DNA from: Phototrophicaceae bacterium
GTDB lineage: Bacteria > Chloroflexota > Anaerolineae > Aggregatilineales > Phototrophicaceae
Assembly: GCA_965205875.1 (NCBI GenBank)
Contig: CBDBIA010000004.1
Coordinates: forward strand, 2,682,830 to 2,746,829
Reading direction: 5' to 3'
DNA: 64,000 bases
The position numbers and the translations under genes were made by a program. How positions within the stretch are numbered: position 1 is the stretch's first letter; the number at the start of each line of letters is the position of its first letter. Shown here one piece after another: positions 10,153 to 17,393 of the stretch. Below the pieces are notes generated by a model. The model had not been told where the DNA came from and did not search any database. It was given only the letters and a program-made list of their open reading frames with translations.

Positions 10153-12627
10153 ATGAACGAACCCATCGTGGAACGCGACGATCCGGTCGAAACGACCGGG
10201 CTCGCTGAAGAAAACGGCGTCGCGGCAGCGCCGGATGACGCCGCGGAAGAAGAAGCGCTGCAGCCGCTGGAGCTGCCGGTGCTGCCCCTGCGCGGCATGG
10301 TGGTCTACCCCCAGACGGCCGTGCCGCTCACCGTGGGCCAGCCGCGCAGCATGAAGCTGGTCGACAGCGTCGTCAATGGCGACCGCGTGATTTGCCTCGT
10401 CGCCTCCAAAGACCCGGACAACGAAACGCCCGGGCCGGACGAGGTCTTCCGCGTCGGCACCCGCGCCTCCATCCATCGTATGTCGCGCTCGCCGGACGGT
10501 TCGCTGCGCCTGCTGGTGCAGGGTCTGACGCGCCTGCGCATCGATGACTTCGTGGAAGAGGATCCCTGGCTGAAGGCCTCCGTCAGCGAAATCCCGGAAG
10601 AGCAGGACGCCGACGAGCTGGAGCTGGAGGCCTTGATGCGCAACGTCGTCGACCAGTTCACGCGCATGGCCGAGCTGGTGCCCAGCATCCCCGGCGAGCT
10701 GATCTCCTCCGCGCTGAACATGGAAGACCCGCTGCAGCTGGTCTACGCCATCGCCACCTACGTACGCATCGAGCTGGACGAGGCCCAGAATTTGCTGGAG
10801 ATCGACTCGCTCGAAAGCAAGCTGCGCCACCTGATGGCCCTGCTGGGCAAGGAACTGGAGGTGCTGGAGCTGGGCCGCAAGATCCAGACCGAGGCGCAAT
10901 CCGGCATGGAGAAGGTGCAGCGCGAATACTTTCTGCGCGAACAGCTGAAGGCCATCCAGCGCGAACTGGGCGAGAGCGACGAGCAGACCGTGGAGGTGGA
11001 GGAGTTTCGCGAACGCATCATGGCGGCCGGCATGCCGGAGGAGGCGCAGAAGGAAGGCCTGCGCGAGCTGGAGCGACTCTCGCGCCTGCCGACGGCCGCT
11101 GCTGAATACGGCGTCATCCGCACCTGGCTGGATTGGCTGACGAGCCTGCCCTGGTCGCAGCGCAGCGAGGACAAGCTCGACATCGGCAACGCGCGCGCCG
11201 TGCTGGACGAGGACCACTATGGTCTGAAGGACATCAAGGAGCGCATCCTCGAATACCTGGCCGTGCGCAAGCTGCGCGCCGAACGCGCCGAAGAGCAGGA
11301 AGCGGATGAGCCGCAGGACCACATCCGCCGCGACCGCCAGGGCGCCATCCTGGCCTTCATCGGGCCGCCGGGCGTGGGCAAGACCTCGCTGGGCGCCTCG
11401 ATCGCGCGCGCCATGGGGCGCGAGTTCGTGCGCATGAGCCTCGGCGGCGTGCGCGACGAGGCGGAGATTCGCGGCTTCCGGCGCACCTACGTCGGCGCCA
11501 TGCCCGGTCGCCTCATCCAGACCCTGCGCCGCGTCGAGTCCATCAATCCGGTCATCATGATGGACGAGGTCGACAAGCTGGGGCGCGACTTTCACGGCGA
11601 CCCCGCCAGCGCGCTGCTGGAGGTGCTGGATCCGGAGCAAAATCATGAGTTTCGTGATCACTATCTGGACGTGCCGCTGGACCTGAGCGAGGTGCTCTTC
11701 ATCACCACCGCCAACGAACTGGAGCCCATCCCCGGGCCGCTGCGCGACCGCATGGAGATCATCCATCTAAGCGGCTACACCGAGCAGGAGAAGGCCGAAA
11801 TTGCGCGTCAGTATCTGGTGCCGCGCCAGATCCGTGAAAATGGCCTGCGCCGCTCCGAGATCGCCTTCGACGACGAGACCCTCTTGCAACTCATCCGCGA
11901 TTACACGCGCGAGGCCGGTGTCCGCAGCCTGGAGCGCGAAATCGGGCGCGCCGCGCGCAAGGTGGTCACGCGCATCGCGGAGGGCGAGCAGGATTGTGTA
12001 CAGATCGACGAAACGCTGCTGCGCGAACTGCTGGGCAAGCCGCGTCACGGCTGGCGCGAGGAGATCGCCGAACGCACCGACAAGCCCGGAGTCGCGACCG
12101 GCCTGGCGTGGACGCCGGTGGGCGGCGAGGTGCTCTTCGTCGAGGCGGCGCGCATGCCCGGCGGCAAGGGCTTCCAGTACACCGGCCAGCTGGGCGAGGT
12201 GATGCAGGAGAGCGCGCTCACGGCGCTGAGCTACATCCGCTCGCAGGCGGAAACGCTGGATATTGACCCGGCGCTCTTCGAGAGCAACGACATCCACCTG
12301 CACGTGCCGGCGGGCGCCGTGCGCAAGGACGGTCCCTCCGCCGGCGTGACCATGGCCGTGGCGCTGGCCTCACTGTTGACCGGACGGCCGGTTCGCAGCG
12401 AAGTGGCCATGACGGGCGAAATCACCCTGCGCGGTCAGGTGCTGCCGGTGGGCGGCATCAAGGACAAGGTGCTGGCTGCACACCGCCTCGGCGTGGCCAC
12501 CGTTATCATCCCCCACAAAAACGAGAACGACCTCGACGACCTGCCGGACGAGGTGCGCGAGTCGCTGGAGTTCGTACTCGCCGAGCGCGTCGACGATGTG
12601 CTGGCCGCGTCGCTGGTGGCAGGGTGA
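10153..12627 (+). CDS. lon: ATP-dependent protease Lon
   Basis: 824 aa from ATG 10153 (the track ORF begins at GTG 10114). LON N-domain, Walker [10 protein letters not shown], proteolytic-site block [14 protein letters not shown]. Confidence 0.95.
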
Positions 12628-12639
12628 CGCGCTGGCGGG

Positions 12640-13521
12640 TTAGCCAACCTGGCTCCAGCGCCCGTCCGCGAGAAGTTCGATCTGGCCGCGCCGCTTCAGG
12701 CCTTGCTGCGCGTTGCGCACGTAGTGCTTCCATCGCTTGCCGAAGTGGACGTCGCCGATCACCCTGTCGATAGTGTCATCGCAAATGTCGGGGTGAAGAC
12801 CTTGAATACGGGGATGTAGCGCGACGGTTGAAAGTGGTCCGTGCTGCTTTAGCAAGAATAGGATGGCGTCCGCGAGAATCCCGTTGGTCGAGTTACCTTG
12901 AGCACGCGCCTCATAGAGTTTTAACTTTTGTTCCAGTTTGTTTATCCTGGACTTCACTTCCTGGTTGATTGAGCCTTGTGCCTCTTTTCGGGCGGCGTTC
13001 AACTGCTCCGACTCCAGTGCGATTCTGCTGAGGGTATCTCGTGGAAACATGGTGCCCTGTGAGGCATATCCCTCGAACTCATTTCTCAGATGGTTTACGG
13101 AAGGTTCGTCGTGGAACAGCACGCCATACTCGAGATTCTTGTTGAGCCCGTAATGCGTCAAATTAGCTGACGTGATAATGGCAGCGTGCGAATCCGCGAT
13201 GTAGGCCTTGGCGTGCAGGGAAGACAGATGCGTAACGCTCGCAGATTGGACTTCGTCAGCGAACTCAATCAGCGCAGCGACATTTAAGGAGTCGCCACTA
13301 CGGTAGCCATTTCCCAGATTTGTCAGGATCAGAGTTTGCGGAGGGTATGTGCGCTCATGCAACAGTGACGCGATACGCATGAGTGGCTGGCGTGTGATGA
13401 AGGGGGAAACAATAAGGAGCGATTGTTCCGCGCTTCGTGCGAGTTTGTCGAGATGTTCTGACCAGGGTCTGGACAGAAATATCGGCATGTATTCCATGGG
13501 ATTGGTAGCTCGACCGCACAT
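12640..13521 (-). CDS. single-HKD phospholipase-D-fold nuclease fused to a C-terminal winged-helix (Mrr_N-like) module
   Basis: 293-aa ORF in a visibly lower-G+C stretch. HKD motif HAKAYIAD-SHAAII-TSAN at 13162..13215. Coiled-coil-like linker (EQLNAARKEAQGSINQEVKSRINKLEQKLKLYEA). C-terminal HPDICDDTIDRVIGDVHFGKRWKHYVRNAQQGLKRRGQIE resembles Mrr N-terminal wHTH domains. The start may instead be Met9 (13497) or Met12 (13488). Confidence 0.7.
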   Translation of the reverse strand: MCGRATNPMEYMPIFLSRPWSEHLDKLARSAEQSLLIVSPFITRQPLMRIASLLHERTYPPQTLILTNLGNGYRSGDSLNVAALIEFADEVQSASVTHLSSLHAKAYIADSHAAIITSANLTHYGLNKNLEYGVLFHDEPSVNHLRNEFEGYASQGTMFPRDTLSRIALESEQLNAARKEAQGSINQEVKSRINKLEQKLKLYEARAQGNSTNGILADAILFLLKQHGPLSTVALHPRIQGLHPDICDDTIDRVIGDVHFGKRWKHYVRNAQQGLKRRGQIELLADGRWSQVG

Positions 13522-13611
13522 TGGTAGCTTGCCCTATCAAGGTGTCCATCATATCGTTTTTGCACGCAGGCGACAGCAGCGACTGCGAACCTTGGAGAAA
13601 CGGAGCGTACA

Positions 13612-13887
13612 ATGGACGGCACCTCTCCACAGTTATTTAACTCCACAAGAATATGCTGGCGAGGCGCATGGACCTTGGGCCTCATCAAACTGAACGAGGA
13701 ACTCAGGCGGCGGATGCTTTACTTCCTGGACCATGAAGTGTCCGACCTGTACAATTCAACCGAAGCGAAGTTGAGACGAGAGAGCAAGGACCTGGAAGTC
13801 GATCTCGTCGATTTGGATATCTCGTTTCAGGACGCATGTAAGGCTCTTCAGAACGACTACCTCGACCCTGAAGACATCGGTGTGTAA
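13612..13887 (+). CDS. hypothetical small acidic protein
   Basis: 91-aa ORF with GGAG 6 nt upstream of ATG 13612, divergent from the PLD gene. The C-terminal 57 aa (from Met at 13714) contain 15 D/E versus 5 K/R. No family recognised. Confidence 0.35.
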   Translation: MDGTSPQLFNSTRICWRGAWTLGLIKLNEELRRRMLYFLDHEVSDLYNSTEAKLRRESKDLEVDLVDLDISFQDACKALQNDYLDPEDIGV

Positions 13888-13976
13888 CTGTCAACCAGTT
13901 GCCAGGCAAACTCCAATGTGCCAGTTCCGTTTGGTCTCATTTGCTGACCGGTTCAAGTATATTGCCTTGGTGACCA

Positions 13977-14005
13977 GTGACGCAACGCGTGGCTTGCGCT
14001 ATACT
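13977..14005 (+). promoter_or_regulatory. candidate sigma70-type promoter for the PHP gene
   Basis: GTGACG, 17-nt spacer, TATACT (-10 at 14000..14005). TATACT recurs as the -10 in other intergenic regions of this window. Confidence 0.35.
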
Positions 14006-14171
14006 GTGAACGCGCGACCCTGCGCGGCGGATGCGCGCGCCGGTTCGCGTCCCGGCTTCCCTGACGCATCCCTCATTCTGTCCGAATAACGAATCCGAAG
14101 ACGCTGCGTTGAGCTTAACGCCTGTCGCAACGAGAGAGACGAACCAGTTGGCTTCCAGAAAAAAAGCGCAG

Positions 14172-15977
14172 ATGAAGTGGTATCGCGCTGACTTGCACCT
14201 GCACACCCCCGCTTCCGACGACTATCAGGAAAAAGCAATATCCACCCTGGACATCCTGCGCCGGGCCGAAACCCGCGGCCTGGATGTCATCGCCTTTACC
14301 GACCACAATACGATCGGCGGTTACGCCGCCATGATGCGCGAGATCGAGCAGCTCACCTGGCTGGAGGAGTTGGGCCGCGCCCAGGACGCCGAGCAGCGCA
14401 AGCTGGCAGACTATCGCCGCTTGCTCGACAAGATGCTCGTGCTGCCGGGCTTCGAGTTCACCGCCACGCTCGGCTTTCACATCATCGGCGTCTTCGCGCC
14501 GGACACGCCCCTGCGTCAGATCGAGCACGCGCTGCTAAGCCTGAACGTGCCGCCCGAGGTGCTGGAGTCCGGCTCCTCGCGCGTGGGCGCCTCCGCCGAC
14601 GTGCTCAGCGCCTATCGCGTCATCAACGACTCCGGCGGCATCTGCATCGCGGCCCACGTCAACAGTACGCACGGCGTGGCCATGCGCGGCGTGGATTTCG
14701 GCGGCCAGACGCGTATCGCCTACACTCAGGACTCAAATCTGCACGCGCTCGAGGTGACCGACCTGACGAGCAAGGCGCGCGGTAGCACCCAGCGCTTCTT
14801 CTCCGGCACCAAGCCGGAGTATCCGCGACGCATGCGCTGCATCCAGGGCTCGGACGCGCATCGCCTGGTCGGGGCCGGCGGCAGGGAGCGCAACCGCAAC
14901 CTGGGCGTCGGCGACCGCGTGACGGAAGTGCAGCTGCCGGAACGCTCTTTCGCGGCCCTGCTGGAGCTCTTCCGCAGCGATGATTTCTCGCGCTCGCGAC
15001 CCTACACGGTCAGCCGCAAGACCTACGACTACGTCGGCCTGGCGCGCGAGGAAGGCAGCAGCGTGATCCAGTCCTTCCACGAAACGATGACGAAGCGCGG
15101 CGGCCGCCTCTACAACATCATCGCCGACGTCTGCGCCTTCGCCAATGGCAACGGCGGCACCGTCTGGGTGGGCGTCAGCGCCGATGGCAAAAAGGAACCC
15201 GTTGGCGTGAGTCGCGTGACTGAAAGCACCAGGGCGCTGTCAGAGGCCATCAGCCGCATGCTGACGCCGCAGCTCAAGGTTGAAATCGACGCGCTCGAAA
15301 GCCAGGGCAAAAAGGTCGTGCGCATGCGCGTGCCGCGTGGCGAGGACAAGCCCTACGCCATTGAAGACTCCAGGATTTACGTGCGCTCGGATGTCGAAAC
15401 CAGCCTGGCAGTGCGCGACGAGATCGTCAACCTCGTGCGCCAGCTCCCGCAGCAACAGCAGCAGGCAGCTGCACCCGCAGCGCAGCCTGAACCTGCGCCC
15501 GCTGCGCCGCCTGCGCAGCCTCGCCCGGCGCCCTCGCGCCGTCGCAAGGCGGCTCCATCCGGCAACGGCGCCGCCCCGACTGAGTCTGTTGAATCTGCTG
15601 CGGAGTCCCGGGGAGCGGACGGAATCATCAAACCACCGCGCGGCGGCGTCGAGATCATTGGCACCGAGCTGCGCAACGATACGCGTTATCATGTGCTGCG
15701 CGACCTGCGCAATGGCAACATCGTCAAAAATGTCACGCGCTCGTCGGCGCGCCGGCTGTGGCACTATGCCATCACGCGGCGCGAGTCCAACCCTGTGCGC
15801 GCGCGCGACGTACAGTGGCAGGGTGATATCGGCCTGGTACGCCGTTACCAGCGCGAGGGCAAGACGCGCTTCGATCTGGCCCAGCGCAAAAGCGGCAATA
15901 TGCGCATCTACTACGGCGTCGCCGAAAGCGGCATGCACGGCGACTGGCAGGCCTTCCTTGCGGACGAGGAGAGCTGA
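14172..15977 (+). CDS. PHP phosphoesterase domain + AlbA_2 (Schlafen-like) domain + Q/A/P-rich linker + unknown C-terminal domain
   Basis: 601 aa from ATG 14172 (alternative ATG 14031). PHP motifs [24 protein letters not shown] and IQGSDAHR. AlbA_2-like block [22 protein letters not shown]. Low-complexity [25 protein letters not shown] linker. The last ~130 aa are unassigned. Confidence 0.75.
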
Positions 15978-16511
15978 TCAGGCCTGCGACTCCGCATCCC
16001 CGGGCGGGTGATAGCGACTGTGAAAGGTCGCGTCATCCATGTGCCAGGGTTCACCCGCCAGACCAATCAGCAGCCAGTTGCCGGCAGTTACGGTGACTGG
16101 CTGCGCGCTTTCCAGCGACTGGACGCGCCGCGCCGCCTGCAAACGTAAGGCCCACACGCCGCGAAATTTGTACCAGGGCTGGCAGCCGGCCTGCTGCAGC
16201 GCCCCAATTCCTGCCAGCTGCGGCAGCGCCTCGTCCCAGGGCCGGTAGACGCGTTCGAAGAGCTCGCGGCGCACCGGCCAACGCTCCCCTTCTCCAGTTT
16301 GCGCCGGGTCCTCCGGTCGATAGCAGAGCATGTCGCCGGCCAGGGCCTGCAACGGACCGGAGTTGCTCATCACCGTCTGCGCCGCGCGCAATTCACGCGC
16401 CATCACGAGGCGCTTGCGCGGCAGCCAGAAGCGAAAACCCGCCGCCCGCAACTCATCCTCGGACCAGTCGCGCTGCCGCAGTACCTCGTCCGCGTCCATC
16501 GCAGCTGTCAT
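15978..16511 (-). CDS. hypothetical protein
   Basis: 177-aa ORF with good GC3 bias. Its stop abuts the PHP gene stop (TGATCA). It contains two similar segments (AGDMLCY..GEGERWPV..LFERVY and AGNWLLIGLAGEPWHM..TFHSRY). No family assigned with confidence. Confidence 0.55.
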   Translation of the reverse strand: MTAAMDADEVLRQRDWSEDELRAAGFRFWLPRKRLVMARELRAAQTVMSNSGPLQALAGDMLCYRPEDPAQTGEGERWPVRRELFERVYRPWDEALPQLAGIGALQQAGCQPWYKFRGVWALRLQAARRVQSLESAQPVTVTAGNWLLIGLAGEPWHMDDATFHSRYHPPGDAESQA

Positions 16512-16577
16512 GGCAAGGGCGCCTCGTCACGCTTCCGGCGCAGAGTATAGCGCAGCCGCGCGGTGCAACTGCGCCGC

Positions 16578-17393
16578 TCAGGGCCAGCCCCGCACGGCTC
16601 GGATGTGATCCCAGGCTTCGGCCACGGCGCGGAAACGTTCCTCGGCCAGCGCGGTCGGCAGGGCGCTCACATCCGGGTGCACGTCGAAGACCTGGCGCCG
16701 AAAGGCCTCGCGCACCTGCTCATGGCCGGCGTCCAGCGTCACGCCCAGCAGCGTGTAGCAGCGCTCAAGCTCGCGCTCGGCGCGGGCCTGCGGATCAGGC
16801 GGCAGCTGTGGCGCCCCGCCAGCAGAATCACGGGGCGCTGCGAAGCGATCGTTTGTCTCGCGCTGCCAGAAGGCCTCCGCGCCGAAGTGCGCGATGTTCC
16901 AGAAGCCACGGATGCTGCGCCTGCGGATGTTGACGCGGCCGGCGTGCAGTCGACGCGGCAGCAGTTGCGGCCCGTAACGCGCGACGTGGCGCTGTCCGCC
17001 CTCCAGCGGCTCCAGATGCACGGGCTGCACGCCCGGCGTCCGGCCTGGCGCGGCGCAAACGTAGATCCGCTCGTTGCCGAGGCTGTGCAGGGCCAGCAGC
17101 CAGTCCGGCGGCACGAAACGCTGGTCGGGTTGTGGCGCGAGGGCCGGGGCGAGCAGGAAGAGCGAGGCGCTGCTGGCCTCCTCGTCGCGTTGCAGCATGC
17201 GCCGTAGTTGCCGCTTGCCCGGCTCCGCGTCAAGGTAGTGCACGTGGATGAGAATGCCCGTCCACAGGCCGATGCACAGGGCCGGCGCGGCCGCGCGCTC
17301 GCCTGACAGCGTCAGCGGCGGCGGCCCGCAAGAGCGCACATCCACCAGGGGCCGCAGCTGTTGGCACAGCCAGTCGCGCAGATCGGGATTCAT
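16578..17393 (-). CDS. J-domain protein with unknown N-terminal domain
   Basis: 271 aa. The C-terminal ~65 aa are a J domain (CYTLLGVTLDAGHEQVREAFRRQVFDVHPD with an HPD tripeptide). The N-terminal ~200 aa are unassigned. The start overlaps the upstream small ORF by 4 nt. Confidence 0.7.
   Translation of the reverse strand: MNPDLRDWLCQQLRPLVDVRSCGPPPLTLSGERAAAPALCIGLWTGILIHVHYLDAEPGKRQLRRMLQRDEEASSASLFLLAPALAPQPDQRFVPPDWLLALHSLGNERIYVCAAPGRTPGVQPVHLEPLEGGQRHVARYGPQLLPRRLHAGRVNIRRRSIRGFWNIAHFGAEAFWQRETNDRFAAPRDSAGGAPQLPPDPQARAERELERCYTLLGVTLDAGHEQVREAFRRQVFDVHPDVSALPTALAEERFRAVAEAWDHIRAVRGWP

Follow-up and report, generated by a model that had tools for sequence, protein, structure and literature searches.

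A candidate modification-dependent PLD-winged-helix restriction nuclease in a variable slot between lon and a PHP/AlbA_2 gene of Phototrophicaceae

We analysed a stretch of 64,000 nucleotides (the window) from contig CBDBIA010000004.1 of a Phototrophicaceae bacterium, in which a short islet of low G+C content separates lon from a gene with PHP and AlbA_2 domains. The islet carries a gene for a protein that joins a phospholipase D (PLD) nuclease domain to a C-terminal winged helix (PLD-wH), and this protein, a candidate restriction nuclease, is the subject of this work. Next to it, in divergent orientation, lies an open reading frame (ORF) of 91 amino acids (aa), with a conserved tandem repeat between the two genes. 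The features of the locus, with positions counted from the first nucleotide of the window, are the following:

12624..12630, plus strand: left junction heptamer GTGACGC, overlapping the lon stop codon; the same heptamer occurs again at the right junction (13977-13983)
12628..13976, no strand: low-G+C accessory cassette, spanning from the lon stop codon to the promoter-like region of the PHP/AlbA_2 gene
12640..13521, minus strand: PLD-wH gene, an ORF of 293 aa from ATG 13521, with likelier starts at ATG 13488 (Met12, 282 aa) or ATG 13497 (Met9)
12643..12897, minus strand: C-terminal winged-helix module, aa 209-293, from an AlphaFold2 (AF2) model and Foldseek; predicted order helix 1 (H1), strand, helix 2 (H2), inserted beta-hairpin, helix 3 (H3), wing
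12898..13065, minus strand: helical linker, aa 153-208, with three predicted helices (161-181, 187-196 and 200-207; DSSP on the AF2 model, with a predicted local distance difference test (pLDDT) score of 77-91)
13066..13476, minus strand: PLD (HKD) catalytic domain, aa 16-152, from Pfam PLDc_2 and Foldseek
13162..13215, minus strand: single HKD motif HAKAYIAD-SHAAII-TSAN, of the form HxKx4Dx6(G/T)SxN, aa 103-120; translation HAKAYIADSHAAIITSAN
13501..13534, no strand: conserved tandem direct repeat ATTGGTAGCT(CGACC)/ATTGGTAGCT(TGCCC), repeat family D7, in the divergent intergenic region between the PLD-wH gene and the 91-aa ORF
13612..13887, plus strand: ORF for an acidic 91-aa protein (isoelectric point, pI, 4.5), divergent from the PLD-wH gene and conserved with it
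13977..14005, plus strand: right junction, GTGACG-17 nt-TATACT promoter-like site of the PHP/AlbA_2 gene, from a promoter scan and alignment to the related genomes L005-L007

The cassette is about 1.35 kb long and has a G+C content of 0.534, as compared with 0.671 for the whole window. G+C ranges from 0.51 to 0.57 across positions ~12650-14150 and from 0.62 to 0.72 on both flanks, and no other stretch of the window has 1-kb intervals below 0.59. The difference is also visible gene by gene: the PLD-wH gene (0.54, with 0.63 at third codon positions, GC3) and the 91-aa ORF (0.51, GC3 0.65) lie between lon (0.67, GC3 0.88; stop codon TGA at 12625-12627) and the PHP gene (0.65, GC3 0.82). A previous sequence-only reading of this DNA had put the ORF at 12640..13521, the HKD motif at 13162..13215 and the end of lon at 12627, all correctly, and had pointed to the fall in G+C and to an AT-rich run found nowhere else in the window. 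Both observations hold: the run is a 29-mer (12919..12947) without another copy in the window even when 3 mismatches are allowed, and on the minus strand it codes for the Lys/Glu-rich linker (...SRINKLEQKLKLYE...). That reading had also noted the lack of an adjacent methyltransferase, helicase or ATPase, and neither the ORF list nor a Pfam scan yielded any such gene between lon and the PHP gene. Its description of the PLD-wH gene as the only substantial one in the islet has to be amended, since the conserved 91-aa ORF and the intergenic repeat also belong to the cassette.

The start codon of the longest ORF, ATG 13521, falls inside the conserved intergenic repeat. Comparison of sequences indicates that translation probably begins at Met12 (ATG 13488), because homologues begin there and the GGCAT that holds this ATG is invariant in 4/4 cassette-bearing genomes. 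The product matches Pfam PLDc_2 over aa 28-150 (E 2e-12, 47.5 bits against a gathering cut-off of 27), and RE_NgoFVII weakly, with 19.8 bits, under the cut-off of 23.8. A search of PDB sequences with the whole protein (phmmer) gave chance-level matches only. We modelled the whole protein with AF2 from a 43-member alignment (pLDDT 90.5, predicted template modelling score 0.87), and the best Foldseek matches of this model were NucT (6ehi; E 5.7e-7, template modelling (TM) score 0.71 on the target), Nuc (1byr; TM 0.76), Zucchini (4ggj), SauUSI (7clg) and BfiI (2c1l). TrmBL2, which combines a winged helix-turn-helix (wHTH) with a PLD-like fold, was also among the matches. Within the 43 family members, K105, D110, S118 and N120 of the HKD motif are invariant and H103 is at least 90% conserved; the window ORF is intact and has all the conserved residues. 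By motif, profile score and fold the protein thus belongs to the single-HKD subgroup of Nuc/NucT/BfiI-like nucleases, as had been proposed from the letters of the DNA.

The family is sizeable. A total of 479 homologues were found with E<=1e-3, and most of the 120 that were listed are ~290 aa long and align over ~95% of the query with 42-55% identity. The few source names given are Chloroflexota, Anaerolineaceae, Bryobacteraceae and Terriglobia, and the only cluster names are 'phospholipase D family protein [Anaerolineaceae / Chloroflexota bacterium]'. Copies in sister genomes are 96-97% identical to the window protein.

Conservation is not evenly spread along the chain: median identity to distant homologues reaches 65% in the wH module, as compared with 40% in the PLD domain and 29% in the linker. 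In the AF2 model the module consists of helices at 212-227 and 232-242, a beta-hairpin at 252-261, a further helix at 264-277 and a two-strand wing, and when the C-terminal 91 aa were modelled alone the pLDDT was 95.1. The module is basic (pI 9.5) and contains the near-invariant motif HPDxCDDxxDRVIxxVHFGKxWKHxVRNAQ, whose most conserved residues (HPDxCDD, DRVI, VHFGKxWKH, R269 and Q272) map to the H2-H3 loop, the inserted hairpin and the recognition helix H3 of the model. Most of its 50 listed Foldseek matches in the PDB are winged helices, with TM scores of 0.5-0.65, probabilities of 0.9-1.0 and E-values of 0.05-0.25. They include cullin WHB domains (at the top), the Z-alpha/beta domains of ZBP1, PKZ and ADAR1, the globular domain of histone H1, and MarR, DtxR, Zur and IclR; DpnI and Mrr structures are absent from these 50. 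The modelled structure therefore supports a winged-helix fold for aa 209-293, and nothing more specific.

A helical linker and a C-terminal winged helix had been anticipated by the sequence-only reading, and on this point AF2 and Foldseek agree with it. It had gone further and likened the C-terminal part to the N-terminal winged helix of Mrr; this assignment we reject, as Pfam scans of aa 139-293 and 208-293 (the C-terminal 155 and 86 aa) at E<=10 gave no match, Mrr_N (PF14338) included, and the full-length protein did not match Mrr_N either. A profile of the module run against PDB sequences at E<=10 likewise did not retrieve DpnI and gave chance-level matches only (Rv2667, haemoglobin, eL13). 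Against 1.84 billion representative proteins the same profile gave 306 matches, and the 150 listed are nearly all either proteins of ~280-300 aa in which the module occupies ~200-285, or fragments of lesser length. No winged helix linked to a PD-(D/E)XK, HNH or GIY-YIG nuclease was found by the profile among these representatives. Since the search retrieves a single architecture, the module appears from its sequence to be private to PLD proteins of this kind. The idea of a promiscuous reader shared with other effectors was accordingly dropped, at the sensitivity of a hidden Markov model search.

We then compared the lon-PHP junction in related genomes, gathered as a graded series by a scan with Lon. 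Across 13 of them the same junction occurs in three states. It is empty, with the PHP/AlbA_2 gene directly after lon, in L005, L006, L007, L009, L012, L013 and L027; the closest relatives, L005, L006 and L007 (Lon 95-97% and PHP 91-93% identical), are all of this type. Alignments of empty sites (one with L005-L007, L009 and L013, a second with L005-L007) show that the GTGACG-17-TATACT promoter-like site comes there straight after lon, and that the junction reads GGGTGACGTGACGCGAC. The cassette with the PLD-wH gene and the 91-aa ORF is found in the window, in L001 (PLD-wH protein 97% identical), in L002-L004 (PLD-wH protein 55%, 91-aa protein 58%) and in L011. In the last of these (L011:12511-13343) a frameshift splits the PLD-wH gene into ORFs of 174 and 132 aa, with the 91-aa ORF intact, so that this copy is either a pseudogene or the product of a long-read assembly error. 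The third state is a cassette of ~1.9 kb that resembles a type II restriction-modification (R-M) system, in L008:12521-14479 and L020:12511-14390, with a G+C content of 0.47-0.49. It consists of an N6_N4 methyltransferase gene, an ORF of 143-156 aa and an ORF of 216-218 aa; the latter, which has no Pfam match and is 61% identical between both genomes, is a candidate restriction endonuclease. The defence-type context expected from the sequence is thus borne out by what fills the slot elsewhere, as is the accessory nature of the islet by the empty slots of the closest relatives.

Slot cassettes have a G+C content of 0.47-0.53, against 0.64-0.67, and this low G+C marks the foreign origin of the cassette. 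In a neighbour-joining tree of Lon and PHP, the PLD cassette falls in two separate clades, each nested among sisters with empty or R-M-bearing sites. Both clades share the same junctions, as seen in L001, L002 and L011: the stop codons of lon and of the PLD-wH gene converge at 11-12 nt from each other, and the right end lies just upstream of GTGACG-17-TATACT. Polymorphism at a fixed junction, alternative cargo and atypical composition together mark the islet as an accessory cassette in a recurrent defence hotspot. The claim that it was acquired recently, made on the grounds of its composition, could not be maintained in its simple form. The cassette of the sister clade (L002 and others) sits at identical junctions, is positionally orthologous at 55-58% protein identity and is of low G+C as well, and the polymorphism is for this reason old or recurrent. 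The cassette may be a long-standing polymorphism whose composition has not ameliorated; alternatively, recombination in the conserved flanks may have repeatedly brought in alleles from a pool of lower G+C. We also considered the flanking GTGACGC heptamers as a target-site duplication, and found the case too weak: the pair is present in the window clade only and not in the sister clade.

To see the gene beyond this slot, we scanned metagenomes and obtained 80 PLD-wH loci, of which 51 are non-redundant at <85% PLD identity. The PLD-wH gene is the constant element of these 51 loci, and its neighbours vary. One type is a protein of 460-490 aa with a C-terminal Mrr_cat domain, encoded directly upstream (L094:4487-5962, L122:4503-5891). 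Another is a Cys-rich ORF of ~100 aa that lies over the PLD-wH start codon and has no family match (L098:5660-5962). The third is an MTaX1-HNH_2 protein encoded directly downstream (L078:8861-9943, L081:6722-7519); MTaX1 is predicted to discriminate modified DNA (PMC10853773). No locus has more than one of these three neighbours, which share no homology. A second nuclease gene or a small Cys-rich ORF abuts the PLD-wH gene in about half of the 51 loci, and roughly a third have none of these partners, some copies being solitary among housekeeping genes. The earlier proposal that the nuclease stands alone is consequently right for the window and for some other loci, and wrong for about half of the non-redundant ones. 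In the window, tblastn with Mrr_cat, HNH, Cys-rich and methyltransferase sequences gave nothing significant, its sole match belonging to the conserved region 5' of PHP, which the 156-aa ORF of L008 overlaps.

A Pfam census of 130 flanking ORFs in the 51 loci yielded five families met more than twice: N6_N4_Mtase (9), HNH_2 (9), Mrr_cat (7), MTaX1 (6) and PIN (4). The flanking methyltransferase ORFs that we scanned are halves of genes (L128:5114-5635, L136:5132-5635, L126:4206-4757, L155:6503-6898, L085:1540-1854 and L161:2700-3110 are such loci). Of four N-terminal fragments, three match Pfam positions 1-108 of 221 and one matches 2-132; three of the four lie upstream of the PLD-wH gene, and the fourth, in L160, lies downstream on the opposite strand. 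C-terminal fragments, covering only positions 121/174-218 of 221, lie downstream of the PLD-wH gene. These half-length ORFs may be decaying genes, recombination scars or small proteins under selection. The two halves were never found in one locus by tblastn, and the idea that the PLD-wH cassette had inserted into a methyltransferase gene and split it was rejected for this reason. No intact N6_N4-type methyltransferase was seen beside PLD-wH in the sampled family loci. Foreign composition recurs in the family: the PLD-wH gene has a lower G+C content than the distal flanks in 19/19 loci, with a median difference of -0.084. No full-length family member was found on 72,556 plasmids and 50,697 phages. 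The contexts of three members taken from NCBI did not reproduce the neighbourhoods published for CbaI and Aba4572I. Separately, in six loci an ORF of 150 aa that we labelled by eye as IS200/RAYT-like lies ~210-230 bp downstream of the PLD-wH gene (L115:7074-7526, L121:2966-3418, L128:7050-7502 and three more).

The second gene of the cassette has a narrower distribution. The 91-aa ORF adjoins the PLD-wH gene in L001, L002-L004 and L011, with the same length throughout and 58% identity between clades. It is preceded by GGAG 7 nt 5' of its ATG, in the conserved context GGAGCGTA(C)CAATG. Database searches returned only 3 homologues, all of 91 aa; domain and family scans gave no match except a sub-threshold one to NCBIfam YacC (18.6 bits against a cut-off of 80), and the protein was found in none of the 80 other PLD-wH loci. 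Between the two genes, copies of ATTGGTAGCT at 13501-13510 and 13520-13529 stand 19 nt apart, in a block that lies 13-46 nt upstream of the Met12 start. This 10-mer has 2 copies in the window, both here, against 0 expected. The repeat block is 88% identical between clades, compared with an islet mean of 66%, and of the eight 40-nt windows listed as most conserved it is the only non-coding one. It is a candidate operator or promoter element. As a matter of speculation, the acidic protein and the repeat probably control or restrain the nuclease in this lineage.

We propose that the main product of the islet is a single-chain, type IV-like, modification-dependent restriction endonuclease of PLD-wH architecture, carried by a mobile defence cassette at a hotspot, and we regard this as probable, though by no wide measure. 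As each chain has one HKD motif, the protein would act as a homodimer with a single active site, two chains pairing their HKD halves as in Nuc, NucT and BfiI. By analogy with the chemistry of these three enzymes, it would need no metal to cleave phosphodiester bonds and would pass through a phospho-histidine intermediate. The basic and highly conserved winged helix would target the nuclease through its recognition helix H3 and the inserted beta-hairpin, reading some constant feature that the DNA of the host does not have; a base modification is the most plausible, and an unusual form of the DNA of the invader is another. That no intact methyltransferase accompanies the gene in the window, and none of N6_N4 type in the sampled family loci, together with a reader that is nearly invariant across phyla, is what points to such a constant feature rather than to a strain-specific sequence protected by methylation. 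The cassette pairs a nuclease and a predicted reader without a cognate methyltransferase, which is the arrangement expected of type IV enzymes.

Several points weigh against this proposal. There is no intact methyltransferase in the 64-kb window, and a distant cognate enzyme elsewhere in the genome is possible. The activity, target and phenotype of the PLD-wH family are putative only; purification of the published PLD-wH proteins failed, and Aba4572I behaved anomalously (PMC11037411). The window protein is likened to Aba4572I and CbaI by description, and homology between them is putative. The Foldseek E-values of the module (0.05-0.25) are weak, so that the fold predicted by the model is silent on its ligand, and winged helices can also mediate protein contacts, as the cullin WHB domains at the top of the matches recall. 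There is no detectable sequence link from the module to readers of the DpnI or Mrr type. Finally, the second nuclease or Cys-rich neighbour present in about half of the loci implies that the protein may not act alone everywhere.

Other explanations have to be weighed on the same evidence. The cassette could be a toxin-antitoxin or abortive-infection module, in which PLD-wH is a self-directed toxin held in check by the 91-aa protein, as a DNA mimic or a direct inhibitor, until the nuclease, released by infection or when the cassette is lost, kills the cell or arrests it. The two genes are co-inherited in all Phototrophicaceae genomes that have the cassette, the 91-aa protein is acidic (pI 4.5) and the wH basic (pI 9.5), the intergenic region that the genes share holds a conserved repeat, PIN toxins recur among the neighbours of the family and published PLD-wH genes are toxic or not expressed in E. 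coli (PMC11037411). Yet the genes are divergent, whereas most toxin-antitoxin pairs are co-transcribed; the 91-aa protein is limited to this lineage, with its 3 database matches and 0 occurrences in 80 other loci; and the PLD-wH gene is found elsewhere alone or with other partners. We counted L011 on the same side: an intact 91-aa ORF beside a frameshifted PLD-wH gene is the order of loss expected of a toxin-antitoxin pair, but may equally be an assembly error. Overall we consider such a module unlikely. The partners seen in other loci raise the question of whether the window protein is an orphan subunit of a multi-nuclease restriction system that has lost its Mrr_cat, MTaX1-HNH_2 or Cys-rich partner, with reduced or no function left. 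In the 51 loci PLD-wH is indeed abutted by one of these, often with overlapping stop and start codons, and the L011 copy is frameshifted. Against this, the partners exclude each other and share no homology while PLD-wH stays constant, about one third of loci are partnerless with some copies solitary among housekeeping genes, and the islet holds no partner remnants, with an ORF that is intact in all conserved residues and 96-97% identical in sister genomes. We therefore judge the loss of a partner to be quite unlikely.

The protein could alternatively be a type IIS-like enzyme of the BfiI/NgoFVII type, its wH reading a specific unmodified sequence and a cognate methyltransferase elsewhere in the genome protecting the host. 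BfiI, in which a PLD nuclease carries a DNA-binding domain at its C terminus, is a structural match, RE_NgoFVII is matched weakly at 19.8 bits, N6_N4 methyltransferase ORFs are the commonest neighbours of the family, and R-M cassettes occupy the same slot in relatives. However, this score is under its cut-off of 23.8, the cassette is devoid of a methyltransferase, and those scanned among the neighbours are truncated to one half, without motif IV or without motif I. Type II specificity domains, moreover, diversify with their target, whereas this reader hardly varies from one phylum to another. All this makes a type IIS enzyme improbable. A function outside defence, as a repair nuclease or as a wHTH transcription factor with a degenerate, ligand-binding PLD domain (TrmB-like) that regulates its own gene through the ATTGGTAGCT repeats, would account for the TrmBL2 match and for the conserved tandem repeat upstream of the gene; the catalytic HKD residues are nevertheless intact and conserved, the gene is patchily distributed among close relatives, its composition is foreign in 19/19 loci and its neighbours are of restriction type, and we hold this to be very improbable. 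A bolder variant of the modification-dependent nuclease is that the wH, whose invariant His/Cys/Asp cluster spans the H2-H3 loop, the hairpin insert and H3, is a new kind of reader for a DNA modification or form that restriction has so far not been linked to, and that the cassette is an 'anti-methylase' element, selfish or defensive, incompatible with N6/N4 methyltransferases, with the 91-aa protein as its inhibitor and ATTGGTAGCT as operator in Phototrophicaceae. Incompatibility with resident enzymes would explain why half genes are the sole methyltransferases flanking PLD-wH in other phyla; as a whole this variant is unlikely.

Beyond the cassette, the PHP/AlbA_2 gene (14031-15977, plus strand) encodes a PHP domain and a Schlafen AlbA_2 domain. 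The PHP domain resembles the N terminus of the defence proteins Ppl and TrlF, with scores far below their cut-offs. Because the gene has a host-like G+C content and follows lon in the majority of the sampled loci related to Aggregatilineales (48-93% identity), it is a core gene bordering the hotspot. Past it, on the minus strand (15978-17393), come two further genes; the product of one (177 aa) weakly matches PGDYG, and that of the other (271 aa) has a DnaJ domain at its C terminus. They are syntenic in close relatives of the Phototrophicaceae clade and, at 60-62% identity, diverge faster than lon (91%). Over the whole window, CTAG is nearly absent (4 observed against 195 expected from base composition) and GCGC is over-represented 2.2-fold; GATC (230 observed against 195 expected) is not depleted, and is uninformative on methylation.

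If the modification-dependent reading is right, the islet gives access to a compact family (~280 aa) of methylase-less restriction nucleases from the poorly studied Chloroflexota and Acidobacteriota. The family lies outside Pfam beyond the generic PLD domain, and the PADLOC library gives partial matches to its HKD region only. Its reader, unusually conserved and private to the family, could be the recognition module for a defined DNA modification, and as such a useful reagent. The lon-PHP junction of Phototrophicaceae is in addition a clean natural case of one slot that is empty in some sister genomes and holds an R-M or a PLD-wH cassette in others, useful for the study of defence-gene turnover by recombination between homologous flanks.

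Among systems already described, the closest are the 27 'PLD-wH' fusion endonucleases of Helbrecht et al. (2024), which were proposed to be of type IV (PMC11037411). Those cloned include Aba4572I, from an Anaerolineaceae bacterium, and CbaI, from a Chloroflexi bacterium, and CbaI is toxic in Dam+ but not in Dam- E. coli (PMC11037411). Like the window protein, they have an N-terminal PLD domain and a C-terminal winged helix in one chain, come from Chloroflexota hosts and do not require a cognate methyltransferase. Their published neighbourhoods ('restriction endonuclease - PLD-wH - hypothetical' and 'amino-MTase - PLD-wH - hypothetical') resemble our loci with Mrr_cat proteins and with methyltransferase fragments. 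They differ in that their wH was found through similarity to DpnI and HhiV4I and clusters with the readers of PD-(D/E)XK-wH and wH-GIY-YIG enzymes, none of which our module detects, and in that 17/27 lie near type I methyltransferases, as against 0 in our 51 loci. END nucleases are a second point of reference: a single gene with a PLD domain and a C-terminal sensor restricts hypermodified phages, as established experimentally, and their authors mention PLD domains combined with wHTH sensors (PMC12191111). END-PaCF1 and its relatives share with the window protein the single gene, the N-terminal BfiI/SauUSI-like PLD domain, the C-terminal sensor that sets substrate choice and the lack of a methyltransferase; they too escape PADLOC and DefenseFinder. 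Their sensor is, in contrast, an inactivated endonuclease III/OGG-like domain and not a winged helix, and their host range is different.

BfiI/NgoFVII and Nuc/NucT have in common with the window protein the single-HKD PLD fold that dimerizes around one metal-independent active site, to which BfiI adds a C-terminal DNA-binding domain. BfiI nonetheless reads DNA with a B3-like pseudobarrel and has a cognate methyltransferase, and Nuc and NucT lack a reader domain. With its sub-threshold RE_NgoFVII score, no methyltransferase and a winged helix as the putative reader, the protein falls outside the type IIS BfiI/NgoFVII R-M systems. DrmC of DISARM, ZacB of Azaca and MkoB of Mokosh also contain a PLD/HKD domain, and their models are the best PADLOC matches; these are partial, most of them, including all the best-scoring DrmC ones, covering the HKD motif region only. 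NCBIfam DrmC (NF038319) reaches 62.8 bits where the cut-off is 133, and the gene has only lon, the 91-aa ORF and the PHP/AlbA_2 gene for neighbours. We rejected membership of DISARM, Azaca or Mokosh, given matches mostly confined to the HKD region, scores under the cut-offs and no partner genes. Mrr_N and the m6A-reading wH of DpnI are likewise winged-helix readers of restriction nucleases, with a broadly similar 'W..h.R.A...L...G.I' pattern on H3; unlike them, the window module has an inserted beta-hairpin and the private motif HPDxCDD...VHFGKxWKH.

The pairing of PLD and winged helix had not been recognized as a named defence system when the sequence was first read. It is not new, as PLD-wH fusions from Chloroflexi have already been described (PMC11037411), even if PADLOC gives only partial matches of the DrmC/ZacB type in the HKD region. 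Nor does it open a new category: single-chain restriction enzymes made of a PLD domain and a sensor are established through SauUSI and the END nucleases, and it is within this known class of PLD-plus-reader restriction nucleases that the window gene finds its place, as a new, or possibly already catalogued, member.

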